From: Candidatus Poriferihabitaceae bacterium
GTDB lineage: Bacteria > Pseudomonadota > Gammaproteobacteria > Arenicellales > Poriferihabitantaceae
Direction: 5' to 3'
Assembly (NCBI GenBank): GCA_965249035.1
Contig: CBDFKV010000006.1
Span: 153,609 to 217,608 of the forward strand
DNA: 64,000 nucleotides
This document shows, piece by piece, positions 4,994 through 59,458 of the stretch. A program made the translations under genes and the position numbers. A model generated the notes under the pieces. The model was given only the letters and a program-made list of their open reading frames with translations, had not been told where the DNA came from and ran no database searches. The first letter of the stretch is position 1, and each line of letters opens with the position of its first letter.

Positions 4994-5030
4994 CCATCTT
5001 CAGCACATTATAGGGCATGGGTGAAGTACG

Positions 5031-6380: not shown

Positions 6381-6382
6381 TA

Positions 6383-7104: not shown

Positions 7105-7111
7105 TGCAAGT

Positions 7112-7141: not shown

Positions 7142-7169
7142 TTCTCATTTGGTTGCCAAACGGGTTCAG

Positions 7170-11523: not shown

Positions 11524-11855
11524 TATCTTGGTGGTATACCACCAATTGCTGTATGCGGCCTTTCGTTATTGTACTGCCACATCCACTTTGTAGCCAACCA
11601 TTGTGCTTGCTCAACGGAGTCAAACAGGTGCAAGTCTAGCCACTCGTGACGAGCAGTACGGTTAAATCGTTCAATATAGGCATTCTGTGTCGGCTTGCCT
11701 GGTTGAATGTAGAGCAAAGTGATCTGATGCTTATTTGCCCAGTCAATCAGTTGATGACTTACGTATTCAGGGCCGTTGTCGCAGCGAATGGCACTCGGCT
11801 TACCACGCCACTCAATGACCTGTTCCAGCGCACGAATCACACGGCCGCTGGGTAA
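11524..11855 (-). pseudogene. IS3-family OrfB (rve integrase core) fragment, interrupted by IS630 copy B
   Basis: ...IRCDNGPEYVSHQLIDWANKHQITLLYIQPGKPTQNAYIERFNRTARHEWLD...NNERPHTAIGGIPPRY. Removing IS630-B and one TA continues the frame into 10427-10407 as ...PRY-LLNAA-stop. The N-terminal two-thirds is absent. Confidence 0.7.
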
Positions 11856-43535: not shown

Positions 43536-44321
43536 CTACCGTCCCTTCCAAACTGGATCGCGTTTTTCTGCAAAGGCTTTAAAGCCTTCTAAGCCATCTT
43601 CGCTGCCGTACAAGCAATCTACGGTCGCGAATTGGCGTTTTGTCACCGCGTTCATGGCCGTTTGGAATTTCATCCCTTCTGCTTCACGCGCCACTTCCTT
43701 AATCGCTGCAAACACCAAAGGCGGGCCAGAGGCGAGTTGTTTTGCAACGTCCCAAACACGGTTCATTAAGGCGTCGCCATCAGCCAATACTTCATTCACT
43801 AAGCCCCATCGATGCGCCTCTTCTACGTCCATCCAGCGCCCGGTATACAGCAGATCCATCGCCACGTGGTAAGGAATGCGCTTAGGCAGTTTGAGGGTCG
43901 CCGCATCTGCCAGCGTGCCCGCGTAAATTTCGGGTAAGGCAAAACTGGATGTCGAACTGGCATAGATCAAGTCTGCAGACAGCGCCAACTCAAAACCACC
44001 ACCAACCGCCATTCCGTGCACCGCACAGATCACGGGTTTATTTAAATCTCTTAACTCTTGTAAGCCTGCAAACCCACCCACACCATAATCACCATCCACT
44101 GCATCCCCACCTGCTGCGGCCTTTAAATCCCAGCCAGCAGAAAAAAAACGATCCCCGGCACTATTGACTATCGCGACCCGCAGCGTGGGGTCATCCCGAA
44201 AATCTCGGAACACTTCGCCCAGCGCACGGCTAGTGATCAAATCAATGGCATTGGCTTTAGGGCGATCCAAAGTCACTTGTAGTATTGCGCCTTTGCGGCT
44301 CAGTTTGATGGCATCAGACAT
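43536..44321 (-). CDS. caiD: carnitinyl-CoA dehydratase / crotonobetainyl-CoA hydratase (crotonase family)
   Basis: 261 aa, colinear with my recollection of E. coli CaiD across the whole length (LDRPKANAID, FFSAGWDLKAAA, GGGFELALSAD, C-terminal AFAEKRDPVWKGR). Confidence 0.85.
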   Translation of the reverse strand: MSDAIKLSRKGAILQVTLDRPKANAIDLITSRALGEVFRDFRDDPTLRVAIVNSAGDRFFSAGWDLKAAAGGDAVDGDYGVGGFAGLQELRDLNKPVICAVHGMAVGGGFELALSADLIYASSTSSFALPEIYAGTLADAATLKLPKRIPYHVAMDLLYTGRWMDVEEAHRWGLVNEVLADGDALMNRVWDVAKQLASGPPLVFAAIKEVAREAEGMKFQTAMNAVTKRQFATVDCLYGSEDGLEGFKAFAEKRDPVWKGR

Positions 44322-44324
44322 GGT

Positions 44325-46442
44325 TCAGTTTATCTCCGAGTTGAATAAGGCTAAGGCGTCAACAGCAACAGCACCAGAACCCTTAGTGCAAACCAATAGC
44401 GGGTTAATATCGAGTTCGAGCAAAGTATCGTGGTGTTTTAATGCAAAGCGTTGTGCGCCTAGTACGGCATCAATAACTGCCTCAAGATCCCATGCCGCCT
44501 GGCCACGATACGAGTCGAACAAGGGCGCAATTTTTAAGGATAATAAGGCAGCACGTATAGCAGGCTCATCCGCTGGCAATAGCAGAGTAACACTTTCTTT
44601 AAGCAATTCAACCAGCGTCCCACCCATGCCCAGGGTTAAACAAAATCCATACTGAGGGTCACGTGTGATCCCAATAATAAGTTCTCCCACGGCGTTAGTA
44701 ATCATGCTTTCGAGCAGGATATTATCTGAAATCAGGAATAGCTCATCAACCGCTTTCAGTAAACTGGCCTCAGAGTCGATCCCCAGCTTAACTGCTCCCT
44801 GCTCTGTTTTGTGTGCAATTCCAAGTGCCTTGGCGACCAAGGGGAAAGTATTATTCTTTATAAAATCAATAGCCTGATTTCGTTTATTAATGTGTTTTCC
44901 AGTGGGAATGCTGACCCCGCAGGCACTCAGCGCCAGCTTGGCGCGGTCTTCGTCCATCATCCAAGGCGTTTCTGTCGATGCTTCTGTCGGCGCTGACGGC
45001 ATGCTTAGTAAAGCCGCCGGTAAACCATTAGTATCCCACTGCTGCCAGCAAGCGCCGACCTTAGCGGAGGCTTCAGCAGCGAGTAAGATTTCGGCAAACC
45101 CACCAAAACAAAGCAGACCATTGTCCCTATAGTGGTCGTATAGCTTTTGTTCCGGCACAGTTTCGCTCAAGGAAGCCACCATCACTGTATTAATCGTCTT
45201 GCCCAAGCGTTGACTAACCGCTTCTCTGGCATCAATAAAAGCCTCAGCGGTTATTCGCCAACCATGGTCACCCAAAGGGGGTATCGGGAAATCCTGAATT
45301 AGGATATTGAGATCAAAATCACTCATTAACATACCGGTAAAAGCCTTGCTGGTCTGTGCCTTATCAGCCCAGATATAGGTATGAAAATCCAGTGGATTTG
45401 CCACCGTTACCAGCGGCCCAAGCGCGGCTTCCGTTTCCTTTTGGGCCGCCGGTGACAATGGCGGAAATTCGATCTGTTTGGCAACCGCGAGATCCGCAAT
45501 CAGGCTGGCTTCGCCACCCGAGCACACCATCGCCGAAAGACGGGAGCCCGGCAGCGCACCAAAGGTATGTAGCAATTTAAGCGTATCCAACAATGTCGGC
45601 AAGCTAGTGACTTCAGCCATCCCCAGACGATTAATAAATGCCTGTGATGCCGCATGTGAGCCGGCCAGTGAAGCGGTGTGCGACAATGTCCCTTGTTGCG
45701 CTTGCTTACTTTTGCCGACTTTCAATAGGGCGATGGGCTTGCCGAGGTGAAAGGCCTTATGGGCCAACTGCTCGAACCCTGTGATGGAATCAAAACCTTC
45801 AACGTGCATGCCCAGGCAAGTGACCCTAGGGTCCTCCAGCAACTCGAGGCCGAGTTGTGCTAAACCTACTTTAGCTTGGTTACCCACCGTCATCAAATAC
45901 CCGATCGGCAAGCCGCGGCGCTGCATGCTGATATTAATCGCAATATTGGACGACTGAGTAATAATGGCAACGCCTTTGGTGCCCTGCTCTAGAACCCCTC
46001 CACCGTGTTGATCTGGCCATAGTAAGGCAGCATCAAAGTAATTGATAAAACCGTAACAATTTGGCCCCAGTATCGGCATATCTCCGCTGGCTTGGACTAA
46101 GGCGGTTTGGAGTTCTTTGCCGTAGCTGTCGTCATCAGTGAGGGTTTCGGCGAACCCCGACGAAAAACACACCGCCCCACCCGCTCCCCGCCGGGCAAGC
46201 TCGCTAACAATCTCGACTGTGATTTTTCGATTAACGCCGATAAAAGCCGCATCGGGGGGTGCAGGTAAAGCGGCAACTGACGGATATACTTGCAAGCCTT
46301 CGATGGTTTTAAGCTGCGGATGTACTGGCCATAAATCACCGTCAAAACCCATTTTTCGACACTGCCGAATAGCTTCGGCAGCCCACCCACCGCCGAAAAC
46401 TGCGATACTTTCCGGGCTGATCAAGCGCCGCAATTTGTTCAT
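44325..46442 (-). CDS. NDP-forming acyl-CoA synthetase (CoA-binding + succinyl-CoA-ligase-like + ATP-grasp domains)
   Basis: Start moved to ATG 46442 (MNKLRRLISPESIAVFGGG...), 16 nt after the upstream stop. 705 aa with the layout of acetate-CoA ligase (ADP-forming) family proteins. Confidence 0.8.
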   Translation of the reverse strand: MNKLRRLISPESIAVFGGGWAAEAIRQCRKMGFDGDLWPVHPQLKTIEGLQVYPSVAALPAPPDAAFIGVNRKITVEIVSELARRGAGGAVCFSSGFAETLTDDDSYGKELQTALVQASGDMPILGPNCYGFINYFDAALLWPDQHGGGVLEQGTKGVAIITQSSNIAINISMQRRGLPIGYLMTVGNQAKVGLAQLGLELLEDPRVTCLGMHVEGFDSITGFEQLAHKAFHLGKPIALLKVGKSKQAQQGTLSHTASLAGSHAASQAFINRLGMAEVTSLPTLLDTLKLLHTFGALPGSRLSAMVCSGGEASLIADLAVAKQIEFPPLSPAAQKETEAALGPLVTVANPLDFHTYIWADKAQTSKAFTGMLMSDFDLNILIQDFPIPPLGDHGWRITAEAFIDAREAVSQRLGKTINTVMVASLSETVPEQKLYDHYRDNGLLCFGGFAEILLAAEASAKVGACWQQWDTNGLPAALLSMPSAPTEASTETPWMMDEDRAKLALSACGVSIPTGKHINKRNQAIDFIKNNTFPLVAKALGIAHKTEQGAVKLGIDSEASLLKAVDELFLISDNILLESMITNAVGELIIGITRDPQYGFCLTLGMGGTLVELLKESVTLLLPADEPAIRAALLSLKIAPLFDSYRGQAAWDLEAVIDAVLGAQRFALKHHDTLLELDINPLLVCTKGSGAVAVDALALFNSEIN

Positions 46443-46458
46443 AGTCCTGCCTGTTTCA

Positions 46459-47619
46459 TCAGCTACCCAGAGGGCGCAACAACTCACGAGAAATGATATG
46501 CCGTTGAATTTCTGAGGTGCCATCCCAAATGCGCTCAACCCGCGCATCTCGCCAAAAACGCGCCAGCGGCAAATCACTCATCAAACCCATACCACCAAAA
46601 ATCTGAATGGCTTCGTCGGTTACTTTGGCCAACATCTCGGTCGCATACACCTTTGCCGAGGAAATTTCTCGGTTAGCTGGCAAGCCCTGATCAAGTCGCC
46701 AGGCAGCAGATAAGGTTAACCAATCAGCCGCATCGACTTCGGTAATCATGTCTGCCAATTTGAAGGAAACACCCTGGAACCGGCCAATGGCTTGACCAAA
46801 CTGCTGGCGCTCTGCTGCATGCGACAAAGCGAGAGCAAATGCGCGTCGCGCCCGCCCAACAGCAGATGCTGCTACGGTCAACCGGGTTGCATACAGCCAA
46901 TCGTTGGCGATGTCGAAGCCGTGATGCACTTCACCTAGTATTTGTGCGTCAGAAACACGGCAATCATCAAAATCAAGAATGCAATTGTTATAGCCCCGAT
47001 GGCTTACCGACTCGTAGCCCGGGCGAATCTTAAATCCGGGCGTATCGCGATCAACCAAAAAGCAGGTGATCAGTTTTTTCGTGCCTCGCGACGTTTGTTC
47101 TTCTCCGGTGGCAACCCACACAATTACAAAATCGGCGATATCCGCGTGGCTGATGAAGTGTTTGCTACCGTTGATTAACCAGTCACCACCATCACGCCGG
47201 GCATTACAGCGCATGCCCCGCACATCAGAGCCCGCCCCCGGCTCGGTCATCGCAATGGCATCCAATTTTTCACCCTTCACCGCTGGGGTGAGATAGCGTT
47301 CTTTTTGGTCTTCATTGCACGCCAACAAAATCCCGGAAGGTCGTCCAAAATAGACGCTTAGCCCCATCGACGCACGGCCCAATTCGCGTTCAAGCAGGGT
47401 GAAATCAAGATGCCCCAATCCTCCTCCACCCACTGATTCGGGCAGGTTGGCTGCGTAAAAGCCAAGATTAATCACCTTTTGTTTAATCTCATCACCCAAC
47501 TCAGGAGGCACCACGCCGCTACGTTCAATCTCATCTTCGTGCGGGTACATTTCTTTTTCTACGAAACTGCGGACGGTATCCACAATCATCTGTTGTTCTT
47601 CACTTAAGCCAAAATGCAT
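46459..47619 (-). CDS. acyl-CoA dehydrogenase
   Basis: 386 aa with an ACAD N-terminus (LSEEQQMIVDTVRSFVEKEM) and C-terminal ...QIFGGMGLMSDLPLARFWRDARVERIWDGTSEIQRHIISRELL. Confidence 0.85.
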   Translation of the reverse strand: MHFGLSEEQQMIVDTVRSFVEKEMYPHEDEIERSGVVPPELGDEIKQKVINLGFYAANLPESVGGGGLGHLDFTLLERELGRASMGLSVYFGRPSGILLACNEDQKERYLTPAVKGEKLDAIAMTEPGAGSDVRGMRCNARRDGGDWLINGSKHFISHADIADFVIVWVATGEEQTSRGTKKLITCFLVDRDTPGFKIRPGYESVSHRGYNNCILDFDDCRVSDAQILGEVHHGFDIANDWLYATRLTVAASAVGRARRAFALALSHAAERQQFGQAIGRFQGVSFKLADMITEVDAADWLTLSAAWRLDQGLPANREISSAKVYATEMLAKVTDEAIQIFGGMGLMSDLPLARFWRDARVERIWDGTSEIQRHIISRELLRPLGS

Positions 47620-47633
47620 GAGAGTTTCCTGTG

Positions 47634-49121
47634 TTAGCGGCGGGCCTGACCAATAAAACGACCAACACCATCGGGTCGTGGTAACGCAGCGTGGTCTGCA
47701 GCGATTTGCAAAGCGACCTCTGATACGCTCGCTTCGGGTTCTGTAGCTTGACGAGTCTCCAGGCTCACATGAATCAGCATATGCTCTCCCGTCGCCAGCA
47801 AGCGCCCATCTTCATGATGCAGACTGTGAACCACATGTAGCTTTTTGCCTTTTGCATCTAAAACTAATGTTTTAACGGTAACCCGCTCATCTGCCGTGGT
47901 TTCGTCCACGTGCTGAATGTGAGTCTCAGCGGTAAAGTAAGAGCCCGTGGTTTTAATGTACTCAGCTCCCACGCCAATTATGCGCATTAGTGCATCGGAT
48001 GCGTCGCTAAAGCATTGTAAATATCGGCTTTCATTCATATGGCCGTTATAGTCGGTCCACTCGGGTGGAACACGCCGATTAACCGTTTCGATCGCCTGAT
48101 TTGTGTCAATTTTCCGTGTTTGGATTTGCTGATCCATATCCGCAAACAATTGCTTTTCATACGCATCCAAGCTTAATCCAGCACCCCAGGAGTTGTGTTG
48201 CAAAGCCTGCATGATAGCGACTAGATTGTCATCACGTATCTGCTCAAGTTCACGAATACTATAAGCGCCAGATTGGGCATCGGACTGACTGCTGATCTTG
48301 TCAACTAGTTCCTCATCCAGCTCTGGCACATTCATTAGTCGGGTCCAAGGCCATTGTAACGTCGGACCAAATTGTGCCAAAAAATGGCTCATGCCCGCTT
48401 CACCACCGGCAATCCGGTAGGTTTCAAATAAACCCATTTGGGCCCAGCGCAAACCAAAACCAAAACGGATGACATCATCTATATCTTCTGTCGTGGCGAC
48501 ACCATCTTTAACCAGCCATAGCGACTCGCGCCAAACCGACTCCAACAAGCGATCGGCAACAAATGCTTCAATTTCTTTTTTGACCCGTAGTGGCCGCATA
48601 CCGAGATATTGAGTGATCTGCTCGACTCGGTCGAGTGAGCTGCTGTCGGTTTGTTTACCCGCGACCAACTCAACCATTGGCAGTAGATAAACCGGGTTAA
48701 ATGGATGGGCAACCAAAAGCCGCCCCGGAACACGCATATTGGCTTGCAAGTCACTCGGCATAATGCCTGAAGTAGATGAGGTGATCAGTGCATCATCGGC
48801 GACGGCTGATTCAATCTCAGCATAAACCGCTTGCTTGATGCCCAAATGCTCGGGCACGGATTCGACAATCAGCTCGGCATCACGCACCGCATCAGCCAGT
48901 GTTGTTTCAAAGGTTAAGGTGCCAGGGGTACGGCGCGGCGCGGCGGTCAGCTTGTTGAGTGCCCGCTCTGCATTGGCGAGCACCTCATTGATTTTTCGTT
49001 GTGCGTCGACGTCCGGATCGAATACGGCCACATCGATGCCGTTCAATAACAAGCGTGCGGCCCAGCCGGCACCGATAACACCACCGCCAATAATAGCCGC
49101 TTTTGAGATAGGTTGACTCAT
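47634..49121 (-). CDS. L-carnitine dehydrogenase (3-hydroxyacyl-CoA dehydrogenase fold) fused to a C-terminal hotdog-type thioesterase domain
   Basis: Start taken at ATG 49121 (MSQPISKAAIIGGGVIGAGWA...), preceded by gaggt. The N-terminal ~320 aa is HAD-family; the C-terminal ~160 aa (...PPEWTDYNGHMNESRYLQCFSDASD...) looks like a 4HBT-type thioesterase. Confidence 0.75.
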   Translation of the reverse strand: MSQPISKAAIIGGGVIGAGWAARLLLNGIDVAVFDPDVDAQRKINEVLANAERALNKLTAAPRRTPGTLTFETTLADAVRDAELIVESVPEHLGIKQAVYAEIESAVADDALITSSTSGIMPSDLQANMRVPGRLLVAHPFNPVYLLPMVELVAGKQTDSSSLDRVEQITQYLGMRPLRVKKEIEAFVADRLLESVWRESLWLVKDGVATTEDIDDVIRFGFGLRWAQMGLFETYRIAGGEAGMSHFLAQFGPTLQWPWTRLMNVPELDEELVDKISSQSDAQSGAYSIRELEQIRDDNLVAIMQALQHNSWGAGLSLDAYEKQLFADMDQQIQTRKIDTNQAIETVNRRVPPEWTDYNGHMNESRYLQCFSDASDALMRIIGVGAEYIKTTGSYFTAETHIQHVDETTADERVTVKTLVLDAKGKKLHVVHSLHHEDGRLLATGEHMLIHVSLETRQATEPEASVSEVALQIAADHAALPRPDGVGRFIGQARR

Positions 49122-49125
49122 AGGC

Positions 49126-50043
49126 TTACCTCGCACTCGGCGCGCGTTTTCGCAGCTTCAATAGATCGCGAACTTCTTGTGGCCCCATAATCTGTGCGCC
49201 CATCTGACTAACGACGGTTGCCGCTTTTTCAACCAGCTGCGCATTACTGGCCAGCTCACCTTTGCCAAGCCACAAATTATCCTCCAAACCCACCCGCACA
49301 TTACCGCCCGCGAGCATTGCTGCGGCAGCATAGGGCATTTGATTGCGACCGATAGAAAAGGCTGAGAAAGTCCAGCTTGGCGGCATGTTGTTCACCATCG
49401 CCATCAACGTATTCAGATCGTCTGGCGCACCCCAAGGAATTCCCATGCAGAGTTGAATCATAACCGGATCTTCGATAATGCCCTCTTCTGCCAATTGTTT
49501 CGCAAACCAAAGGTGGCCGGTATCAAACGCCTCAATTTCCGGACGAACCCCCAAGTCGGTCATCATCTGGCCCATTGCCCGCAGCATTGATGGTGTATTA
49601 ACCATCACATAATCGGCTTCGGCAAAATTCATGGTACCGCAATCAAGTGTTGCGATTTCCGGCAAGCAGTCGATGATAGGTGCCATACGCTCGCTTGCAC
49701 CCACCATATCGGTATTCACTTGATTCAACGGCAATGGTGCTTCAGCAGAGCCAACCACCAGATCACCACCCATTCCCGCCGTCAGGTTTAGCACTACGTC
49801 GGTGTCGCTATCACGTATTCTTTCGGTGACTTCACGGTACAAATCAAGCCTTCGGCTGGGCACTCCCGTGTCCGGATCACGCACGTGGCAATGAACCACG
49901 GCCGCACCCGCGCGCGCTGCGTCAATGGCAGCATTGGCTATTTGCTCCGGACTCCGTGGCACGTGGGGCGAGCGGTCCTGGGTTGAACCGCTACCGGTAA
50001 CAGCGCAGGTGATAAATAACTGTTTACTGGCGTGTAGTGGCAT
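49126..50043 (-). CDS. beta-keto acid cleavage enzyme (BKACE/DUF849), dehydrocarnitine cleavage enzyme-like
   Basis: 305 aa with LFITCAVTGSGS...PRSPEQIANAAIDAARAGAAVVHCHVRD, typical of BKACE TIM-barrel enzymes. Confidence 0.8.
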   Translation of the reverse strand: MPLHASKQLFITCAVTGSGSTQDRSPHVPRSPEQIANAAIDAARAGAAVVHCHVRDPDTGVPSRRLDLYREVTERIRDSDTDVVLNLTAGMGGDLVVGSAEAPLPLNQVNTDMVGASERMAPIIDCLPEIATLDCGTMNFAEADYVMVNTPSMLRAMGQMMTDLGVRPEIEAFDTGHLWFAKQLAEEGIIEDPVMIQLCMGIPWGAPDDLNTLMAMVNNMPPSWTFSAFSIGRNQMPYAAAAMLAGGNVRVGLEDNLWLGKGELASNAQLVEKAATVVSQMGAQIMGPQEVRDLLKLRKRAPSAR

Positions 50044-50135
50044 AAGAGCATTCCGAAATTATTAGCAGGGTGTATTGATAGTAGTCTCGACTTCAACGCA
50101 CATATTAACGATAATAGCCAAATGCTTAACAATTC

Positions 50136-51185
50136 ATGCCAAATCTAACGTTGTCTAACCCCTCGTTACCCCCTCGCTCTCCTCAGCCTATCAGGTCGAT
50201 TCAAGTCGGATTTTTCGTGGTCAATGGATTTTCTATGATGTGCTTTGCCAATGCAGTCGAGCCACTCAGAGCGGCCAATATGATTTTAGGTGAGCATTTG
50301 TTTCAGCGCACCATCATTACGCCAGATGGCAAGCCGGTCAGTTCTTCCAGCAACCTACACCTACTGGCCGACCAAACACCCACTCCTCACCTCCCATTAG
50401 ATTGGCTATTTGTCATCGCCAGCTACGATTATCAACGGCAGGCAGACAAACTAACGGTGTCTGCCATTCGTCAATTGAGCCGCAACGTAAAAGTGCTCGG
50501 AAGCTTAGACTGTGGCAGTTGGTTATTGGCCGAAGCGGGACTGCTGAACCATCACAGTGCAACCATCCACTGGCAGGAACTCGCGCTATTTGAAGAGCGC
50601 TTTCAGCAAATCAAGGTGAGCGATCAACGCTATGTGATTAGCAAAGCTAGAGTGAGTGCGGGTGGTGCGGTCGCCACACTCGACCTAATGCTTGAGCTGA
50701 TCCGTGAACAGTGTGGTAAGCGTTTGTTTTTCGATGTGAGAAATTTATTTCTGCATGACGTCTCACAACCCGGCAACCGTCGCCAGCAGCGCCATAGTTT
50801 GCTTGAAGACTCACCACCTAGTTTGGTTAAGGCGATCAATCTAATGGAAGCAACAATAGAAAACCCATTGCCGCTGGCCGAAATAAGCACCCAAGTTTCG
50901 ATATCATTGCGCACACTCAATCGCCTATTTAAACAACAAGTTGGCTCAAGCCCCGGACAATACTATTTGCATTTGCGCCTAAAAGCCGCACGTCGCTTAA
51001 TTGCTGAAACGCGCCTTGGAATAACCGATATTTCGATCCGCTGCGGTTTTAATTCCCTACAGGCATTTAGCCGCGCCTTCAAACTGAAATTCGGAACCTC
51101 ACCTAAAAGTGCACGCCGAGGGCGGATGATTTTGCAGAAGACAAAGCAGTTAACTCATGGGGCAACTAAAATGAGACCCTATTAG
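50136..51185 (+). CDS. GlxA-family transcriptional regulator (DJ-1/PfpI-like N-domain + AraC HTH), CdhR-like
   Basis: 349 aa with a C-terminal AraC-type HTH (ISIRCGFNSLQAFSRAFKLKFGTSP). Divergent from the carnitine operon. Confidence 0.8.
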   Translation: MPNLTLSNPSLPPRSPQPIRSIQVGFFVVNGFSMMCFANAVEPLRAANMILGEHLFQRTIITPDGKPVSSSSNLHLLADQTPTPHLPLDWLFVIASYDYQRQADKLTVSAIRQLSRNVKVLGSLDCGSWLLAEAGLLNHHSATIHWQELALFEERFQQIKVSDQRYVISKARVSAGGAVATLDLMLELIREQCGKRLFFDVRNLFLHDVSQPGNRRQQRHSLLEDSPPSLVKAINLMEATIENPLPLAEISTQVSISLRTLNRLFKQQVGSSPGQYYLHLRLKAARRLIAETRLGITDISIRCGFNSLQAFSRAFKLKFGTSPKSARRGRMILQKTKQLTHGATKMRPY

Positions 51186-51197: not shown

Positions 51198-52715
51198 TCA
51201 GGGTTCGCTTCTGGGAAAGCGCTGGCTCTCTTCCAGCACATTTAAATCCATATGGTTGCGCATATAGCGTTCCGATGCGTGCTGAACGGGTTCAAATTCC
51301 CACGGAGTATATTTGCCTTGCGTAAGCGCTTCATACACTAACCAGCGCCGCGCTTGTGACTCACGCACCTCGGCATCAAAAGTGCCCAAATCCCAATAGG
51401 CTAATGATTTCTGTTTCAAGTCAGCCCTGACTTTGGCATGATTGGGATACTCAGCCAAGTTGGTTTTTTCTTGTGGGTCCGTTTGCAGATCAAACAGTTG
51501 ATCAGGATCCAGCTGGCAGCGATTATATTTCCAACGGCCCTCGCGCAGCGATACCATGGGGGCATAAGATGCCTCAGCGGCGTATTCCATGCGCACGGGC
51601 GCTGTCCTCTTGCCACCCTGCCCTAAAGGCAGCAAGCTTTCCCCTTCACTCCACGGTGCGATTTCATCCGCGGGTATATCGGCCAGATCAGCCAGTGTTG
51701 GCACGACGTCAATCGTTGAGACTGGGTCGGTAACCAATCCCGGCGCCATTTGTGGCGCGGAGATCATCAATGGCACCCGTGCAGAACCCTCAAAAAAGCT
51801 CATCTTAAACCACAACCCTTTTTCACCCAGCATGTCACCGTGATCAGCCACAAAGACAATACTGGTGTTTTGTGTTTGACGCGTCTCTTCCAAAACCTTA
51901 AGTATTTTCCCTATCTTTTCATCAAGATACGAGATGTTTGCAAAATAAGCCTGACGTGCGCGGCGTACCTGCTTAGCAGTAATTTTAAAACGACTATAAT
52001 CATTGGCAAGCATGATACGCTGCGAATGAGGATCATAGTCTTTGAAGTCGTAAGCACCTTCTTGTGGTTTCAAAAAAGCACAATCATCATACAACCCCCA
52101 AAACTGACGACGCGCGACATAAGGATCATGTGGATGCGTAAAGCTAACCGTCAGCGACCACGGTCGCTCATCTAAACCGCGGCTCAGCTGGTAAATCTTC
52201 TGGACCGCAGAAGCAGCTACCTCATCGTCAAATTCCAGCTGGTTAGTAATCTCCGCAACACCTGCGTCCGTCACCGAAGCCATGTTGTGATACCACCAAT
52301 CGATTCGTTCTCCGGGTTTACGATAATCGGGAGTCCAACCAAAATCAGCGGGATAAATATCGGTGGTTAAGCGCTCTTCAAAGCCGTGTAACTGATCGGG
52401 GCCAACGAAATGCATCTTACCGGCTAGACAGGTGTAATACCCAGCGCGACGTAGATGATGCGCGTAAGTCGGCAAGTCGGCAGAAAACTCGGCAGCGTTG
52501 TCATAGACTTTGGTGCGTGAAGGCAACTGCCCAGTCATGAAACTCGCCCGTGATGGCGTGCACAACGGCGAGGCGGTATAGGCATTCTGAAAGCGCGTAG
52601 ACTTGGCTGCCAGGGCCTTGAGATGGGGTGTATGTAACCATTCAGCCGGGCCGTCAGGAAACAAGGTGCCGTTCAACTGGTCAACCATAATAACCAGGAT
52701 GTTAGGCTTGCGCAT
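51198..52715 (-). CDS. betC: choline-O-sulfate sulfatase
   Basis: Sulfatase signature SPLCTPSRASFMTG (Cys-type formylglycine motif), N-terminal KPNILVIMVDQL, about 505 aa, resembling BetC. Start taken at ATG 52715; the ORF-track start at 52730 is a TTG. Confidence 0.8.
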   Translation of the reverse strand: MRKPNILVIMVDQLNGTLFPDGPAEWLHTPHLKALAAKSTRFQNAYTASPLCTPSRASFMTGQLPSRTKVYDNAAEFSADLPTYAHHLRRAGYYTCLAGKMHFVGPDQLHGFEERLTTDIYPADFGWTPDYRKPGERIDWWYHNMASVTDAGVAEITNQLEFDDEVAASAVQKIYQLSRGLDERPWSLTVSFTHPHDPYVARRQFWGLYDDCAFLKPQEGAYDFKDYDPHSQRIMLANDYSRFKITAKQVRRARQAYFANISYLDEKIGKILKVLEETRQTQNTSIVFVADHGDMLGEKGLWFKMSFFEGSARVPLMISAPQMAPGLVTDPVSTIDVVPTLADLADIPADEIAPWSEGESLLPLGQGGKRTAPVRMEYAAEASYAPMVSLREGRWKYNRCQLDPDQLFDLQTDPQEKTNLAEYPNHAKVRADLKQKSLAYWDLGTFDAEVRESQARRWLVYEALTQGKYTPWEFEPVQHASERYMRNHMDLNVLEESQRFPRSEP

Positions 52716-52953
52716 GGTCAAATCATCCAATCTAAGTGTTGGTCGCAGTCAGCCTTTCAGTTGATCAACCAATTGCTTCAATGCGGCGATTTCAGAACTC
52801 ATTTCCGGTTGAACGGGATCAAGTTCAGATAAAATTTGCTGCCCAAGCTCTTTTCTGGAAAACATATTCATAACCGACTGGATCCGGTGAGTCTATAGCT
52901 CCGGAGGCCGTCGAAAACATACGTTGCGGTGAATGATTGTAAAATATTTACCC

Positions 52954-54612
52954 TTATATATCTGTTGCACCCTCACCGTTATCTACCCCGCGCTCTTCAA
53001 GCAAGGTAGTCAGCCATTCTGGATCCATTTCGGGCACAGACGAGAGCAATAAATCGGTATAGGGCTTATGAGGTGGTGTAAACATATCGTCTTTAGGTCC
53101 TTGCTCAATGATTTTTCCTTGTTGCATCACGACCACGTAATCCGCGATTGAGCGCACAGTTGCAAGATCATGCGTAATAAACATGTAGGCCAGATCCAGA
53201 TCATCCTGCAAATCGCTCAGCAAGCGCAAGATGCCTTCTGCGACAAGTTGATCCAGAGCGCTGGTGACCTCATCGCAGACGATAAAAGTGGGTTCCGCAG
53301 CGAGCGTGCGCGCGATGCCGATTCTCTGCTTCTGACCACCTGACAACTCGCCAGGATAGCGGTGGTAGTATTTCTTGGGTTCAAGCTCGATCAAATCAAG
53401 CAATTCATCAACGCGTTTTTTGAGCGCTGTGCCTTTAAGCCCACTATAAAAAGCAGCGGGCCTGCCAATGATTTCACCAATACGTGTTTTTGGGTTCAGG
53501 GCGGTATCTGCCATTTGGTAAATCATTTGCGCCTGTCGCAATTGATCTTTTGTTCGATCCTGATAACGCGGCGGTAACTCTTTGCCATTAAATGATACGG
53601 TGCCTTTCATTTGCGGCAGTAAACCTGTTATGACACGTGCCGCTGTCGATTTACCCGAACCGGATTCGCCCACCACTGCAACTGTGCGCCCGGCATAGAT
53701 ATCAAATGAAATATCTTTGAGGATTAATATTTCGCCATCATAGGATGCATCCACATTCTTCATTGAGACAACGGGTACAGCATCCGCGGGTGGCGGTGGC
53801 TTTTGTTCGCGTCTGAAATCGCGAACGGCCCAGAGTGATTTGGTGTAGTCTTTTTTGGGTGAATCGAGCATGGTTTTAGTATCCGCTGTCTCCACTTCAT
53901 CACCACGCAACAGCACTTTTATCCGATCGGCCATTTGCGCTACCACCGCAAGATCGTGCGTAATATAAATCGCCGCCGTATTAAATTGATCAACAATATC
54001 ACGGATTGCAGCTAACACTTCAATCTGTGTCGTTACATCCAGTGCGGTAGTCGGCTCGTCAAATATGATTAAATCTGGTCGACAGCTCATTGCCATCGCA
54101 GTCATCGCGCGTTGTAATTGCCCGCCTGAGACCTGATGTGGATATCGAAAACCTATTTCCTCGGGGTTGGGTAATCGTAAGCGACGATACAGATCAATCG
54201 CATCTTCTTGGCTTTCCGTCCGTTTACGTATTCGATACTGAACGGGTGCCTCGGTGTGCTGGTCGATCAGGCGATGCGAGGGATTGAAAGAAGCCGCTGC
54301 AGATTGTGCGACGTAGGCAATACGTGAGCTTCGGAGCGCCCTTAAATCTGCTCGTGGTGTTGAGGTTAACTCAAGGCCATCGAACTCCACACTACCGCCT
54401 GATATCTTACAGCCGTCACGTGCAAAACCCATTGCCGCCAGTCCAATGGTTGATTTGCCAGCACCCGACTCACCAATCAAGCCGAGCACTTCTCCTCGGT
54501 GTAGGTCTAAATCAATACCGTGAACGATTTCAAACCACTTATCATCAGCGAAGGCTTCCAGACGTAAGCCTCTAATTTTCAGTAAAATGTCTTTGTCGTC
54601 TTTTATTGCCAT
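52954..54612 (-). CDS. ABC transporter ATP-binding protein with duplicated ATPase domains (peptide/opine/nickel family)
   Basis: 552 aa with two Walker A motifs (GESGAGKST, GESGSGKST) and two signature motifs (VSGGQLQR, LSGGQKQR). Confidence 0.85.
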   Translation of the reverse strand: MAIKDDKDILLKIRGLRLEAFADDKWFEIVHGIDLDLHRGEVLGLIGESGAGKSTIGLAAMGFARDGCKISGGSVEFDGLELTSTPRADLRALRSSRIAYVAQSAAASFNPSHRLIDQHTEAPVQYRIRKRTESQEDAIDLYRRLRLPNPEEIGFRYPHQVSGGQLQRAMTAMAMSCRPDLIIFDEPTTALDVTTQIEVLAAIRDIVDQFNTAAIYITHDLAVVAQMADRIKVLLRGDEVETADTKTMLDSPKKDYTKSLWAVRDFRREQKPPPPADAVPVVSMKNVDASYDGEILILKDISFDIYAGRTVAVVGESGSGKSTAARVITGLLPQMKGTVSFNGKELPPRYQDRTKDQLRQAQMIYQMADTALNPKTRIGEIIGRPAAFYSGLKGTALKKRVDELLDLIELEPKKYYHRYPGELSGGQKQRIGIARTLAAEPTFIVCDEVTSALDQLVAEGILRLLSDLQDDLDLAYMFITHDLATVRSIADYVVVMQQGKIIEQGPKDDMFTPPHKPYTDLLLSSVPEMDPEWLTTLLEERGVDNGEGATDI

Positions 54613-54631
54613 TGCGAATTCCTCTCCTAAA

Positions 54632-55693
54632 TTAGTTTTTCAATCCAGAGGATCGATAAAGCATCCAGTCAACCACAAAGTTAACTGAAACAGTTAGCAA
54701 TGCGATTGCGCCCGCGGGAATGAGGGGAACGATCTCGCCAAATGAAATAAGGGTTGAGTTTTCTCTCACCATCGACCCCCAATCAGCGGTTGGCGGTTGC
54801 AGACCAAGGCCCAGAAATGACAGGCCGGATATGAGTAGAAATACGAAACAAAACCGCAAGCCAAATTCTGCGATTAAAGGCGCTGCGGCGTTGGGCAATA
54901 TTTCACGTAGAATTAAATGCCAGGTTTTTTCGCCACGCAATTTTGCCGCTTCAATATAGTCCATTACGACAATATTTCCCGCTACCGCCCGAGCTAACCT
55001 GAATACAGGTGGCACGTATAAAAATGCAATCACCAATGTTAGCACGATAATATTTGTGCCAAAAATACTCAACAATAACAGCGAGAAAATCAGGCTCGGA
55101 ATTGACATGAACACGTCTACCGTGCGCGACAATGCCTGATCCATAAATCCACCTTTAGTCGCTGCCATCAATCCCAGACTGGTGCCTGCGAAAAAGGCTA
55201 GAATAGTCGTTACCAATGCTAAGCCAACTGTATTGCGCGCGCCGTAAACCAAGCGGCTAAACATATCCCGCCCGAGTTGGTCACCTCCAAGCAACATAAC
55301 ATCATCTGCGGGTGCAAAAGCAGAGCCAACCACTTCAGCCTGCCCAAACGGTGCGATGATCGGCGCAAAAACGGCTGCGATCATATAAATCATGATCATA
55401 AACAAGCCAAACGTCGCGGTCAGCGGTGCATTTCTAACCGCTTTGGAGCCTCCTCTCGGCAACACAATGGTCAGAAACTCTCTAAAACTATACGCGATTC
55501 CCGCTGCAGCGGCGATAATGCCCGCTGCAATAGTGATGCGCCACAAGGCAGCCTCACCGCCAATAATCCCCACGATAAAGGAGACTAGTGTCAGTGAAAA
55601 CAGCAGTAAAAATGCGGAGCGGTTTTGGTAATAAGCTGCTACGCACGATGCGCCAATAATTAAAGCGAAATATCCAATAACAAAATAACTCAT
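54632..55693 (-). CDS. ABC transporter permease (DppC/OppC-like) with N-terminal extension
   Basis: 353 aa, polytopic, with an EAA-type loop (...YIEAAKLRGEKTWHLILREILPNAAAPLI). Confidence 0.8.
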   Translation of the reverse strand: MSYFVIGYFALIIGASCVAAYYQNRSAFLLLFSLTLVSFIVGIIGGEAALWRITIAAGIIAAAAGIAYSFREFLTIVLPRGGSKAVRNAPLTATFGLFMIMIYMIAAVFAPIIAPFGQAEVVGSAFAPADDVMLLGGDQLGRDMFSRLVYGARNTVGLALVTTILAFFAGTSLGLMAATKGGFMDQALSRTVDVFMSIPSLIFSLLLLSIFGTNIIVLTLVIAFLYVPPVFRLARAVAGNIVVMDYIEAAKLRGEKTWHLILREILPNAAAPLIAEFGLRFCFVFLLISGLSFLGLGLQPPTADWGSMVRENSTLISFGEIVPLIPAGAIALLTVSVNFVVDWMLYRSSGLKN

Positions 55694-55703
55694 GATTCGC
55701 TCC

Positions 55704-56660
55704 TTATTTGGGGTGACGTAGACGTGGATTGGTCAGTATCGATCCAATATCTGCGATCAGATTCAGAACGATAAAAGTGGCGGCAAAAATCAAACAGCAG
55801 GCTGTCACCACCGCAAAATCGCGCTTTGATACGCTGTCCACTAATAGCTGCCCAATACCCGGGTAGACAAAAACCACTTCCACCAGTACCACGCCGGTGA
55901 TCAAATATGCGAGATTCAATGCCACCACATTAATGACGGGGGCTAGAGCGTTTGGTAGGGCATGATGGGTAATAATTTTTCCTTGCGGAACACCTTTTAA
56001 TCTCGCCATTTCAATATACGGAGAAGCAAGTAAACTGATGATGGCCGCTCGTGTCATGCGCATCATATGTGCTGTCACCACCAAAACCAGCGTTAAAGCT
56101 GGCAGGAACATTCGGTGCAGTTTCTCGGTGAGTCCCATGTCATCTGAGATACTGGCAATGGCTGGGAACCAAGGGTTCTTGACCGCCAAAAATAATACCA
56201 GGATATAGCCGACGAAAAACTCTGGCGAGGAAATTGAAGTTAATGTGACGACGTTCGCCACTCTGTCAAAAATTGAGTTTCGAAACAAGGCCGCCAAGAT
56301 CCCGAGGCCGATTGCAATGGGTACGGCTATTATTGCAGCATAAATAGCCAGGAACAGCGTATTCGCGAACCTTTTGCTGATGAGTTCAACCACCGGTTTA
56401 CCACTGATCAGAGAGGTTCCAAAATTACCTGTGACTGCATTCCCCAGCCATTCAAAATAGCGCACTGGCGCAGATCGATCTAAGCCCAGCTCGTTTCGAA
56501 GCGCTGCGACCGATTCTTCTGTGGCCGATTGACCGAGCACGGCTTGTGCCAAATCCCCTGGTAGCAGTTCAACTGCACCGAAGATGATAATCGACACCAC
56601 CAGCAGCGTAACTAGGCCTAATCCAAGCCGCTTAATAATAATTTGCAGAATATCGTTCAT
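55704..56660 (-). CDS. ABC transporter permease (DppB/OppB-like)
   Basis: 318 aa with ...YIEMARLKGVPQGKIITHHALPNALAPVI. Confidence 0.85.
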   Translation of the reverse strand: MNDILQIIIKRLGLGLVTLLVVSIIIFGAVELLPGDLAQAVLGQSATEESVAALRNELGLDRSAPVRYFEWLGNAVTGNFGTSLISGKPVVELISKRFANTLFLAIYAAIIAVPIAIGLGILAALFRNSIFDRVANVVTLTSISSPEFFVGYILVLFLAVKNPWFPAIASISDDMGLTEKLHRMFLPALTLVLVVTAHMMRMTRAAIISLLASPYIEMARLKGVPQGKIITHHALPNALAPVINVVALNLAYLITGVVLVEVVFVYPGIGQLLVDSVSKRDFAVVTACCLIFAATFIVLNLIADIGSILTNPRLRHPK

Positions 56661-56809
56661 GTTGTTCCTCTCGTGACAAGCGGTGCGGTTCGAGGTCCGC
56701 TTGATTTGGCAGGCTCAAAATACACCATCGCAATATTGAATATAGTGCGACGGTGTAGTGTGGCAGAGCGACTATATTTCATGCGCTCGACGAACTTACT
56801 ATTTGACTA

Positions 56810-58642: not shown

Positions 58643-59323
58643 TTACGCAACCTCCAAGTCTATTTCAAGCGGGTTTGGTCTAACAAACATTTCGTGATCG
58701 CTTGACAGATTCCAGTGATCTAGCGCGAGCTGTTTTGCTCTCTCGGGATCCTGTTGTTCAATCGCGTCAATAAACTGGTCGTGATGATCACTCGCTGTAT
58801 ATAAGCGCTCTTGCATCTCAGAGTTATTTGCACGAAAAAAGGTGTGCGCAATTCTCGCGTGGTCTATTGAAAGGCGTTGCAGGCTGGGCCACAGATACTG
58901 ATTATCCGCCATTTCACCCATGATCAGGTGGAAGTTACTATTGTGATAGACCATCGAATCAGGATCACGGGCCAATACCGCCTTACAAAATTGGCGTTGT
59001 GATGCCTTTAGGGCAGTAAGCTGTTCCGAGCTACGGTTTTCAGCTGCCAGTACAGCGATCGATGCGTAGACAGGAGGTGCCGTACGGAAAAAATCACGCA
59101 GCATTTTGTAGTCCATTGATGACACATGCGCACCGCGGTTTTGCGCTATTTCCACATAACCTTCACCCGCCATGCGGCGCAAGACTTCTCTGACGGGTGT
59201 GCGTGAAAGGTTGTATCGTTTACCAAGTCTGGTCTCATCCAGTTTCTCTCCCGGCTGCAACTCCATGGTAAGAATCTGGCGCTTTAGCGCACGATATAAA
59301 TCGTCTTTGTTTTGTTTGCTCAT
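58643..59323 (-). CDS. GntR-family transcriptional regulator (FadR/FCD subfamily)
   Basis: 226 aa with an N-terminal winged HTH (LGKRYNLSRTPVREVLRRMAGEGYVEI) and an all-helical C-terminal domain. Confidence 0.85.
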   Translation of the reverse strand: MSKQNKDDLYRALKRQILTMELQPGEKLDETRLGKRYNLSRTPVREVLRRMAGEGYVEIAQNRGAHVSSMDYKMLRDFFRTAPPVYASIAVLAAENRSSEQLTALKASQRQFCKAVLARDPDSMVYHNSNFHLIMGEMADNQYLWPSLQRLSIDHARIAHTFFRANNSEMQERLYTASDHHDQFIDAIEQQDPERAKQLALDHWNLSSDHEMFVRPNPLEIDLEVA

Positions 59324-59399
59324 GGTTCATTTCCGCACACCATAAAAGAGATTTATGTACGGGGATATGTTTTGATTACGCTATTGTTGCACAGCGCAA

Positions 59400-59413
59400 A
59401 ATTGTATACAATT
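59400..59413. promoter_or_regulatory. candidate GntR operator (14-bp perfect palindrome)
   Basis: aattgtatacaatt, with core TTGTATACAA fitting the GntR/FadR-type GT-N-AC half-site arrangement. Lies in the divergent gap between the GntR gene and the DapA-like gene, 46 nt upstream of ATG 59459. Confidence 0.5.
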
Positions 59414-59458
59414 ATTATACATAATGCAAATCAAGCATCTTATCCAAATTATACCGAC

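Follow-up and report, generated by a model that had tools for sequence, protein, structure and literature searches.

In Sinorhizobium meliloti, a gene cluster reportedly characterised biochemically by Bazire et al. in 2019 is said to take gamma-butyrobetaine to glycine betaine in seven steps with five enzymes, and its arrangement is one that we take to be shared by the locus described here. In the patent literature, the gene names bcoA/B, bcoC, bcoD, bcoE and bcoT belong to the Lonza L-carnitine production strains HK4, HK13 and HK1349, which are Agrobacterium- or Rhizobium-like. Strain HK4, closely related to R. meliloti, turns butyrobetaine into carnitine along a route resembling beta-oxidation, and it can break carnitine down via carnitine dehydrogenase as well (PMC2131755). 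The bcoAB of S. meliloti is one gene; supplied with gamma-butyrobetaine, ATP, Mg and CoA, its product forms gamma-butyrobetainyl-CoA (PMC8364193). Citations in PMC12482172 and PMC8364193 partly corroborate this account of the S. meliloti pathway; PMC12482172 cites Bazire et al. 2019 (J Bacteriol 201:e00772-18) for a BKACE that turns dehydrocarnitine into betainyl-CoA. As a rule, carnitine operons have an AraC-family regulator lying divergent to them; CdhR of Pseudomonas aeruginosa, a GATase1-like AraC activator, binds direct repeats (PMC5806209).

The window analysed here is a 64 kb stretch of DNA from an uncultured gammaproteobacterium. The ORF listing and domain scans define six genes in all, five on the minus strand and one divergent regulator on the plus strand:

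43536 to 44321, minus strand: CaiD-like crotonobetainyl-CoA hydratase (ECH, BcoD-like), 261 aa, last gene of the probable operon
44325 to 46442, minus strand: NDP-forming (ATP-grasp) acyl-CoA synthetase with fused alpha and beta parts (BcoA/B-like), 705 aa
46459 to 47619, minus strand: acyl-CoA dehydrogenase (BcoC-like), 386 aa
47634 to 49121, minus strand: carnitine 3-dehydrogenase fused to a C-terminal 4HBT (hotdog) thioesterase, 495 aa
49126 to 50043, minus strand: BKACE, 305 aa, first gene of the probable operon
50105 to 50144, no strand assigned: candidate operator, two direct repeats TTAAC-N7-GCCAAAT, 21 bp from start to start
50136 to 51185, plus strand: DJ-1/PfpI and AraC-HTH regulator (GlxA, GbdR/CdhR-type), divergent from the BKACE gene

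Transcription runs from BKACE through the dehydrogenase-thioesterase, the acyl-CoA dehydrogenase and the synthetase to the hydratase, with intergenic gaps of 4, 14, 16 and 3 nt. A sequence-only reading of this DNA had counted six minus-strand genes with gaps of 2-16 nt; the gaps nearly match, and the gene count divides into five on the minus strand and the regulator on the plus strand. Its gene-by-gene functional assignments were all recovered by domain and family searches, as was the GlxA/AraC regulator that it had placed divergently facing the block. Because the gaps are only 3-16 nt, the five genes are probably co-transcribed. The block is very probably an S. meliloti-type catabolic operon for L-carnitine and gamma-butyrobetaine, which would lead from gamma-butyrobetaine through L-carnitine to glycine betaine.

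A synteny survey, of the kind that the sequence-only reading had proposed, covered 83 related loci; they come from MAGs of Gammaproteobacteria and from Rhizobiales, with Rhizobium etli and Sinorhizobium among the latter. Identical five-gene content and order was found in 67 of them, among which are R. etli p42c and Sinorhizobium sp. K101, and in 66 the BKACE gene faces a divergently oriented homologue of the regulator. The defining-domain E-values of the block genes lie between 1e-13 and 1e-99, the exception being DJ-1/PfpI of the regulator (5e-6), and these values together with the conserved order indicate that the five-gene arrangement is not due to chance. The earlier claim that carnitine-degrading (cdh) and butyrobetaine-converting (bco) halves are joined in one block thus gains support from strict synteny across two proteobacterial classes, whereas the label "hybrid" overstates how special the set is: the five-gene block is the standard and commonest arrangement of the butyrobetaine/carnitine pathway. 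The finding is real but ordinary, the arrangement being common in Proteobacteria and of a known type.

The S. meliloti cluster and the block comprise the same five enzyme types, namely an NDP-forming BcoA/B-like synthetase, an acyl-CoA dehydrogenase, a CaiD-like hydratase, a carnitine dehydrogenase-thioesterase fusion and a BKACE, with the difference that the window host is a gammaproteobacterium. What ties the block to the characterised S. meliloti enzymes is synteny with Sinorhizobium sp. K101 and R. etli, which share both the gene order and the divergent GlxA-type regulator with the window, together with what Bazire et al. reportedly described. The Rhizobiaceae counterparts share 48% identity with the window synthetase, 49-51% with the dehydrogenase-thioesterase, 71% with the hydratase, 74-80% with the acyl-CoA dehydrogenase and 75-76% with BKACE. 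Opp-type ABC genes directly follow the hydratase in Rhizobiaceae, whereas in the window they are found past the regulator and betC. The bco genes of HK4, HK13 and HK1349 are set beside the window genes by description only.

In the carnitine-degrading half, the dehydrogenase matches NCBIfam NF005716 carnitine 3-dehydrogenase at 731 bits, above the cut-off of 592; the fusion starts at an ATG at 49121 with GAGG upstream and contains Pfam 3HCDH_N, 3HCDH and 4HBT_2 (residues 356-472). The nearest gammaproteobacterial loci, R. etli and Sinorhizobium sp. K101 have the two fused as well. BKACE is covered over its full length by Pfam PF05853 (334 bits, E 1e-99), shares 61-81% identity with its positional counterparts in 67 loci, and is predicted to convert 3-dehydrocarnitine and acetyl-CoA to betainyl-CoA and acetoacetate. 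Identity as the lysine-fermentation enzyme Kce was rejected, the match of 248 bits falling under the NCBIfam equivalog cut-off of 382. RefSeq names the R. etli BKACE a 3-keto-5-aminohexanoate cleavage protein and its dehydrogenase a carnitine 3-dehydrogenase; the trio that follows is named an acyl-CoA dehydrogenase family protein, an acetate--CoA ligase family protein and a carnitinyl-CoA dehydratase, the last being the hydratase orthologue.

Within the window trio, the synthetase starts at an ATG at 46442; a GTG at 46577, the mechanical ORF start, was rejected. The protein carries Pfam CoA_binding_2, Succ_CoA_lig and ATP-grasp_5, keeps the catalytic His motif SHTASLAG, which is invariant or nearly so among homologues, and is 47-65% identical to its syntenic homologues, although like BKACE it stays below NCBIfam equivalog cut-offs. 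Its predicted role is to form acyl-CoA from gamma-butyrobetaine (and crotonobetaine), ATP and CoA. Activation by such an enzyme rather than by CaiB/CaiC had been proposed from the letters alone, correctly, as the window has no CaiB or CaiC homologue. The acyl-CoA dehydrogenase, predicted to oxidise gamma-butyrobetainyl-CoA to crotonobetainyl-CoA, carries all three Pfam domains of its family; its syntenic counterparts in R. etli, Sinorhizobium and two loci from Gammaproteobacteria (L001 and L002) match it at 74-89% identity. At the position of the catalytic Glu of the YEGT motif, present in 54 of 78 orthologues and in most acyl-CoA dehydrogenases, the window protein has Asp. Across all 261 residues the hydratase shares 53% identity with CaiD of E. 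coli K-12, and it retains both crotonase Glu residues in that alignment; the C-terminus AFAEKRDPVWKGR, given earlier as that of CaiD, is indeed identical in E. coli K-12 CaiD and the window protein. Its top NCBIfam model is NF002936 crotonobetainyl-CoA hydratase, at 312 bits against a cut-off of 500, with the runner-up at 210.

Set beside other carnitine systems, the block shares with the P. aeruginosa caiX-cdhCAB-hocS operon a carnitine dehydrogenase, a BKACE for dehydrocarnitine and thioesterase function (PMC5806209; PMC12482172). The window, however, has neither a CaiX-type binding protein nor an acylcarnitine hydrolase (hocS), and the block has its thioesterase fused rather than separate and adds the bco trio. 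The E. coli caiTABCDE/fixABCX/caiF system also applies CoA-thioester chemistry to the same betaines and shares the CaiD-homologous hydratase; in contrast to that anaerobic pathway, the window has an NDP-forming synthetase, a predicted oxidative direction and no homologue of CaiT, CaiB, CaiC, CaiE, CaiF or FixA. The cdh-only operons of Agrobacterium fabrum C58 pAt and Paracoccus denitrificans PD1222 plasmid 1, known by annotation only, resemble the window in a GlxA-type regulator divergent from BKACE and in a fused carnitine 3-dehydrogenase. They encode an SBP_bac_5 protein, two permeases and a double ATPase inside the operon, with an alpha/beta hydrolase next, whereas the window transporter lies outside; unlike the window, they have no synthetase, acyl-CoA dehydrogenase or hydratase genes. 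We found no experimental work on these two operons in the searchable literature.

The regulator contains Pfam DJ-1_PfpI, HTH_18 and HTH_AraC, and its top NCBIfam match is GbdR, at 257 bits against a cut-off of 480; its likeness to P. aeruginosa CdhR, which is also divergent and GATase1-like/AraC, is by description. The two TTAAC-N7-GCCAAAT copies lie in the intergenic region between regulator and BKACE, the second overlapping the annotated regulator start codon. They are the only exact matches in the 64 kb, looser matches occurring at chance level, and they are conserved in L083, L001 and L002 but not in distant loci. We infer from this that the repeats are a candidate operator, and likewise infer an inducer for the regulator.

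Taken together, these assignments suggest a complete route. The synthetase would spend ATP to convert gamma-butyrobetaine, and probably also crotonobetaine, to the CoA thioester; the acyl-CoA dehydrogenase would then yield crotonobetainyl-CoA, to which the CaiD-like hydratase would add water to give L-carnitinyl-CoA. The thioesterase domain fused to carnitine dehydrogenase would free L-carnitine, which the dehydrogenase domain would oxidise with NAD+ to 3-dehydrocarnitine. BKACE would condense this with acetyl-CoA and cleave the product to betainyl-CoA and acetoacetate, and thioesterase hydrolysis, in a putative second role, would release glycine betaine. The divergent GbdR/CdhR-type activator would control the operon promoter, probably by binding the repeats at 50105-50144. 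No electron-transfer flavoprotein or glycine-betaine demethylation genes were identified among the scanned window ORFs, and the downstream steps must therefore be encoded elsewhere.

The regulator is followed by a second set of genes:

51198 to 52730, minus strand: betC choline-O-sulfatase (TIGR03417 choline-sulfatase, 856 bits against a cut-off of 433)
52954 to 58420, minus strand: Opp/Dpp-type ABC importer (Pfam and NCBIfam), 1.8 kb beyond the regulator, after betC
52954 to 54612, minus strand: fused double ATPase of the importer (Pfam and NCBIfam)
54632 to 55693 and 55704 to 56660, minus strand: importer permeases (Pfam and NCBIfam)
56810 to 58420, minus strand: SBP_bac_5 binding protein with Tat signal, part of the importer

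The betC gene is convergent with the regulator and is regarded here as a neighbour of the operon, with no claim to membership. The earlier statement that the block has no dedicated betaine transporter is literally true but overlooks this importer, which is a plausible candidate uptake system for carnitine and gamma-butyrobetaine, at about even odds.

Two other readings of the enzymes have to be weighed. That only BKACE and the dehydrogenase-thioesterase handle carnitine, the trio being generic short-chain acyl-CoA beta-oxidation for an unrelated acid, is the least probable: in the 67 loci the trio directly adjoins the cdh genes with its order unchanged, and it is closely spaced here; its hydratase, 53% identical to E. 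coli CaiD, has the crotonobetainyl-CoA hydratase model as its best match by a wide margin; and the bcoAB product of S. meliloti has served in experiments as a gamma-butyrobetaine:CoA ligase (PMC8364193). In favour of this reading are the failure of all three proteins to reach an NCBIfam equivalog cut-off, the best-scoring model of the acyl-CoA dehydrogenase (acryloyl-CoA reductase), its identity of only 29% to E. coli CaiA, and the separability of the modules implied by L005, L011 and L046, where bco-type genes occur without cdh genes within 8-10 kb. Very improbable, too, is a trio that is reductive as in E. coli cai (carnitine to crotonobetaine to gamma-butyrobetaine, the synthetase conserving ATP), or a set reversible as a whole from glycine betaine to carnitine and butyrobetaine, even though the hydratase is a CaiD homologue and sulfur-oxidiser-type Gammaproteobacteria are relatives of the host. 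NDP-forming synthetases are reversible in principle. Moreover, isotope tracing in marine communities followed label from glycine betaine to carnitine and then gamma-butyrobetaine, with CDH/BKACE reversal suggested as one route (PMC9321204). Against reversal, the window lacks the CaiB transferase, CaiT antiporter, CaiE and FixABCX-type electron supply, the acyl-CoA dehydrogenase is not CaiA-like, the thioesterase steps are effectively irreversible, and a catabolic-type GbdR/CdhR-like activator probably controls the cluster. The S. meliloti pathway reportedly runs from butyrobetaine to carnitine. So does the homologous HK4 pathway (PMC2131755).

For the importer, there is somewhat short of an even chance that it stands outside the carnitine system, with carnitine and butyrobetaine entering by a transporter encoded elsewhere; its substrates might then be peptides, hydroxyproline/proline-betaine-type compounds (for a GntR/DHDPS-like/ALDH/MttB unit on its far side) or choline-O-sulfate for betC. 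The closest homologues of its binding protein (68-87% identity) occur in other contexts, one in L088 with a second binding protein, a PhzF-like protein, an M19 dipeptidase and an MR/MLE enzyme, and others as orphan genes or in a bare ABC operon, while behind a Leisingera homologue (59%) come genes for a proline racemase, a DHDPS-family protein and an aldehyde dehydrogenase, resembling the window genes at 59312-61874. Directly upstream of the binding protein lies a GntR gene rather than the GlxA regulator, no operator-like repeat was found upstream of the ABC operon, and L001 and L002 have no such transporter beside the cluster. Carnitine uptake is favoured, on the other hand, by binding-protein homologues that adjoin the carnitine cluster in 29 of the 83 loci. 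In A. fabrum and P. denitrificans such homologues (50% identity) sit between the BKACE and CDH genes, and in R. etli (41%) and Sinorhizobium sp. K101 (43%) they come straight after the hydratase gene. The family is likewise embedded in or adjacent to the carnitine clusters of many Mesorhizobium-type loci, and in an unrooted-style NJ tree the clade that holds the window protein has carnitine-linked binding proteins to either side. No BCCT homologue is present in the window, and none of the 83 loci has MttB/ALDH homologues or close DHDPS/GntR homologues beside the ABC genes. Finally, a 92%-identical relative contig keeps the ABC-betC-regulator-carnitine linkage, betC in its position, with the GntR/DHDPS/ALDH/MttB flank replaced by other genes.

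The tight row of minus-strand genes at 43536-50043 was defined from an ORF table combined with Pfam and NCBIfam scans, after two mechanical ORF starts (those of the dehydrogenase-thioesterase fusion and the synthetase) had been corrected. The sequence-only reading had counted six minus-strand genes here; the ORF table and domain scans place five on the minus strand, facing a divergent regulator on the plus strand. In transcription order, from BKACE to the hydratase, the intergenic gaps are 4, 14, 16 and 3 nt.

Genes of the block and its divergent regulator
49126-50043, minus strand: BKACE, first in transcription order (ORF table, Pfam)
47634-49121, minus strand: carnitine 3-dehydrogenase (CDH) fused to a 4HBT thioesterase, second; start ATG at 49121, preceded by GAGG
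46459-47619, minus strand: acyl-CoA dehydrogenase (ACAD), third
44325-46442, minus strand: NDP-forming acyl-CoA synthetase, fourth; start ATG at 46442
43536-44321, minus strand: crotonase-family hydratase, fifth
50136-51185, plus strand: GlxA/AraC-type regulator with DJ-1/PfpI and HTH_18 domains, divergent

The clearest family assignment is that of the fusion protein, which contains all three of the 3HCDH_N, 3HCDH and 4HBT_2 domains (Pfam) and scores 731 bits against the NCBIfam carnitine 3-dehydrogenase model NF005716 (equivalog cut-off 592). BKACE, whose gene adjoins that of CDH across the 4-nt gap, matches PF05853 over its full length with 334 bits and reaches 248 bits against the model for Kce of lysine fermentation (NF052387), below the equivalog cut-off of 382, as expected for an enzyme with another substrate; "3-keto-5-aminohexanoate cleavage protein", its RefSeq-style name, denotes the family and not what this enzyme does. 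The synthetase combines CoA_binding_2, Succ_CoA_lig and ATP-grasp_5 domains in a single polypeptide, by its sequence the domain set of relatives of ADP-forming acetyl-CoA synthetases, and keeps the SHTASLAG motif with the catalytic His, which is invariant or nearly so among homologues. The hydratase shares 53% identity with E. coli K-12 CaiD across all 261 residues and keeps the two crotonase glutamates, and its top NCBIfam model, crotonobetainyl-CoA hydratase (NF002936), leads by about 100 bits with a score of 312 against a cut-off of 500; it is a CaiD homologue with the same probable chemistry, but not an equivalog by the NCBI threshold. The C-terminus of the hydratase, which the sequence-only reading had likened to that of E. 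coli CaiD, is identical in the E. coli K-12 protein. For the regulator the top NCBIfam model is GbdR, at 257 bits and below the cut-off of 480. In the ACAD (46459-47619, minus strand), Asp365 within IWDGTSE aligns to the catalytic Glu of the YEGT motif, a position held by Asp in 24 orthologues besides that of the window and by Glu in 54.

Exactly this gene set was reportedly characterised in S. meliloti by Bazire et al. in J Bacteriol in 2019; there, gamma-butyrobetaine is said to be turned into glycine betaine in seven steps by five enzymes, with both carnitinyl-CoA and betainyl-CoA as substrates of the CDH thioesterase domain. The proposal that the block leads from butyrobetaine through carnitine to glycine betaine is supported by the predicted enzyme set: butyrobetaine would be activated by the NDP-forming synthetase, dehydrogenated, hydrated and released by thioester hydrolysis as L-carnitine, which would then undergo NAD-dependent oxidation, cleavage by BKACE with acetyl-CoA to betainyl-CoA and acetoacetate, and a final hydrolysis of betainyl-CoA to glycine betaine. 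We infer the substrates, the direction of the pathway and the dual role of the thioesterase from homology and the literature.

The likeness to the S. meliloti-type cluster, in which genes for the butyrobetaine-to-carnitine half (bco) and the carnitine-to-glycine-betaine half (cdh) stand together, extends to several features. The gene order BKACE-CDH-ACAD-synthetase-hydratase with a divergent GlxA/AraC regulator and the adjoining BKACE and CDH genes recur in the window, the CDH-thioesterase fusion is common to the window, R. etli and Sinorhizobium sp. K101, and the synthetase shares 48% identity with its syntenic counterparts in Sinorhizobium and R. etli. The product of the single S. meliloti gene bcoAB has been used to synthesise gamma-butyrobetainyl-CoA, starting from butyrobetaine with ATP, Mg and CoA (PMC8364193), and synteny suggests that BcoA/B is of the single-polypeptide NDP-forming type. 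Bazire et al. are cited, in a passage of PMC12482172, for the conversion of 3-dehydrocarnitine to betainyl-CoA by BKACE. In the Lonza strain HK4, which is close to R. meliloti, a beta-oxidation-like route leads from butyrobetaine to carnitine, and carnitine is also broken down there through carnitine dehydrogenase (PMC2131755). In contrast, the E. coli cai operon is matched in the window only by CaiD (53%) and, as a generic ACAD match at only 29% identity, by CaiA. A tblastn search with E. coli K-12 proteins found no homologue of CaiB, CaiC, CaiT, CaiE, CaiF or FixA in the 64-kb window, and the block is therefore not a cai-type system; the earlier suggestion that activation proceeds without CaiB or CaiC holds, since the NDP-forming synthetase is present and both of these are missing from the window. 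The Pseudomonas cdh operon (caiX-cdhCAB-hocS, with CdhR) shares with the window CDH, BKACE, a thioesterase function and a divergent GATase1-like AraC regulator, but its CaiX-type binding protein of the glycine-betaine family and its HocS acylcarnitine hydrolase are absent from the five-gene operon. The "CAR/CAI modules" of Psychrobacter plasmids were set aside as not relevant, as they comprise the CntAB route, which runs through a monooxygenase, and a fragment of CaiAB. The block is a further member of a known and widespread system whose pathway is already understood in Rhizobia.

Gene content, architecture and conservation were observed directly, the last of these in 83 loci, 80 of them from a genome scan with the synthetase as anchor and three further ones: R. 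etli CFN42 p42c, a Sinorhizobium sp. K101 replicon (a stand-in for S. meliloti) and a metagenomic contig with a 92%-identical synthetase. The five genes keep their order and orientation in 67 of the 83 loci, including Sinorhizobium sp. K101 and R. etli, and in 66 the divergent regulator is present as well; contig ends account for most of the exceptions. Hosts are gammaproteobacterial MAGs, Thiothrix and Thiolinea among them, and many Rhizobiales (Mesorhizobium, Aminobacter, Phyllobacterium, Nitratireductor, Rhizobium and Sinorhizobium), and synthetase homologues occur on 178 plasmid or chromid records, for the most part from Rhizobium. The joined bco and cdh form is the commonest arrangement, so that the "hybrid" that had seemed special is the norm and not an oddity. 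Both halves also occur singly. Three loci with ample flanking sequence (L005, L011 and L046) carry bco-type genes, the synthetase with an ACAD or a hydratase, and no BKACE or CDH within 8-10 kb, which indicates that the butyrobetaine-to-carnitine half can stand without the other; taken with Agrobacterium and Paracoccus plasmids that have cdh genes without bco genes, they mark the two halves as separable modules. Such cdh-only operons, with interleaved Opp-type ABC genes, lie at 6920-16223 of L092 (A. fabrum C58 pAt) and at 6912-16201 of L094 (P. denitrificans PD1222 plasmid 1), and no experimental work on them was found in the searchable literature.

The thioesterase is the variable element of the set. 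It is fused to CDH in only nine of 71 loci, namely the window, its close relatives, some Thiothrix-type loci, R. etli and Sinorhizobium, and in six Phyllobacterium-type loci (L036, L041, L045, L060, L064 and L068, at about 5200-5640) it has a gene of its own beyond the regulator; in the remainder of the 71, a search within 22 kb turned up no thioesterase homologue. Mesorhizobium-type loci instead carry an additional 209-aa ORF, with no Pfam hit, between BKACE and CDH, as at 7039-7668 of L028.

AraC-family regulators divergent from carnitine-to-glycine-betaine operons are the rule, and the binding sites of CdhR are direct repeats (PMC5806209). The 92-bp spacer between regulator and BKACE is overlapped by two direct repeats of TTAAC-N7-GCCAAAT, 21 bp apart at 50105-50144, which are the only exact copies in the whole window. 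They are kept in the three closest loci and absent from distant loci, whose regulators are only 35-40% identical. We consider these repeats a likely, putative operator. The motif was found upstream of neither betC nor the ABC operon, promoter and terminator scans gave matches at or below chance expectation, and Rfam returned tRNA only.

Beyond the regulator lie further genes that may bear on quaternary amines.

Features beyond the regulator
51198-52730, minus strand: betC choline-O-sulfatase (TIGR03417, 856 bits against a cut-off of 433), between the ABC operon and the carnitine regulator
52954-58420: Opp/Dpp-type ABC operon, beyond regulator and betC; Tat-signal SBP_bac_5 binding protein (SBP), two permeases, double ATPase
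58643-59323, minus strand: GntR regulator, far flank
59312-60373, plus strand: DHDPS-family protein, far flank
60366-61874, plus strand: aldehyde dehydrogenase (ALDH), far flank
61871-63439, plus strand: non-pyrrolysine MttB-superfamily methyltransferase (Pfam MTTB, 707 bits; below the TMA-methyltransferase cut-off), far flank

No betA or betB equivalog was found in the window, and no corrinoid-protein gene is visible from the MttB gene to the window end. The MttB unit may serve as a demethylation route for another quaternary amine, such as a proline- or hydroxyproline-type betaine. In the 92%-identical relative contig (L096), a DAO/FAO_M/GCV_T gene resembling dimethylglycine/sarcosine dehydrogenases (fragmented by low coverage) and an M24 peptidase gene, at 1220-6210, flank the ABC operon in place of the GntR/DHDPS/ALDH/MttB unit, and both versions of the flank relate to methylated-amine catabolism. 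Through the far-flank genes and betC, the region resembles a quaternary-amine utilisation island. A TetR gene is inserted between ATPase and betC in the relative contig. The proximity of betC to the cluster in another locus, L034, was dismissed as coincidental because unrelated genes lie between them.

The position of the ABC operon bears on the earlier statement that a dedicated transporter is lacking, which stands for the block itself and for BCCT homologues, of which the window contains none, but overlooks the Opp/Dpp-type operon nearby. We tentatively propose, at somewhat less than an even chance, that the five-gene block forms just the enzyme core of a wider quaternary-amine island, with this importer as its uptake component. 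SBP_bac_5 transporters of the Opp/Dpp family are usually annotated as peptide or nickel importers, and a literature search returned no report of one carrying L-carnitine or gamma-butyrobetaine. Whether the importer serves the carnitine/butyrobetaine pathway is, on the genomic evidence, about evenly poised. In A. fabrum C58 pAt and P. denitrificans PD1222 plasmid 1, the genes run GlxA / BKACE-SBP-CDH-permease-permease-ATPase-alpha/beta hydrolase with an SBP 50% identical to that of the window, and the four ABC genes come directly after the hydratase in R. etli and Sinorhizobium (SBP 41-43% identical). However, the closest SBP homologues (68-87%) are found beside dipeptidase and epimerase genes, as orphans or in bare ABC operons; these unrelated contexts weaken the view that the Rhizobiales cluster-linked system is orthologous to that of the window, and a family-level association only is retained. 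In a midpoint-rooted NJ tree, carnitine-linked SBPs fall on both sides of the window's clade.

Across the comparison set, such permeases (>45% identity, against 33% for an unrelated Opp paralogue) occur within 10 kb in 29 of the 83 loci, although the nearest gammaproteobacterial loci are without the transporter. Locally, the linkage of ABC operon, betC, regulator and carnitine genes is preserved in the 92% relative while the far flank differs, and in none of the loci do MttB/ALDH homologues or close DHDPS/GntR homologues stand beside the ABC genes; against this, the gene preceding the window SBP is the GntR and not the GlxA regulator, the operator motif is missing upstream of the ABC operon, and a Leisingera SBP homologue (59%) is followed by proline-racemase, DHDPS and ALDH genes similar to the window's far flank. 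One of the close SBP homologues (72% identity), in L091, belongs to an ABC operon that has a GBBH-like dioxygenase (PF06155 and TauD; 6141-7301) some 3 kb upstream of it, which is a second and independent hint of a link between this SBP clade and gamma-butyrobetaine. Comparison with PDB sequences gives no hint of the ligand, as the matches of the SBP there are confined to distant binders of peptides, nickel and opines (E ~1e-23). Less likely than uptake by this importer, and in our estimate very improbable, is that the enzyme set runs in reverse in marine bacteria, from glycine betaine to carnitine and butyrobetaine, a direction hinted at by seawater isotope data (PMC9321204).

Gamma-butyrobetaine and carnitine are abundant quaternary amines of animal and algal origin. 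The predicted enzymes suggest that the host could draw carbon and nitrogen from both, or obtain the osmolyte glycine betaine from them. The block adds a gammaproteobacterial example, from an uncultured host with relatives among sulfur-oxidiser-type lineages, to a pathway known from Rhizobia. The practical value lies chiefly in annotation, as the usual labels "acetate--CoA ligase family protein" and "3-keto-5-aminohexanoate cleavage protein" hide the pathway. The most useful lead, and the only somewhat novel one, is that the recurrent Opp-type ABC family may serve as importer for the pathway; if it does, it would be the missing dedicated importer of the pathway in many Proteobacteria.

The remaining window holds chromosomal housekeeping genes and a polysaccharide cluster. 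The best named relatives are Arenicellales, Sedimenticola and Thiodiazotropha MAGs (72-74% identity), and the host accordingly belongs with uncultured Gammaproteobacteria. Two essentially identical direct copies of an IS630-like element with a DDE_3 transposase (5282-6385 and 10426-11528, 5144 bp apart) flank glycosyltransferase genes within the polysaccharide-biosynthesis cluster, and the pair may form a composite transposon.
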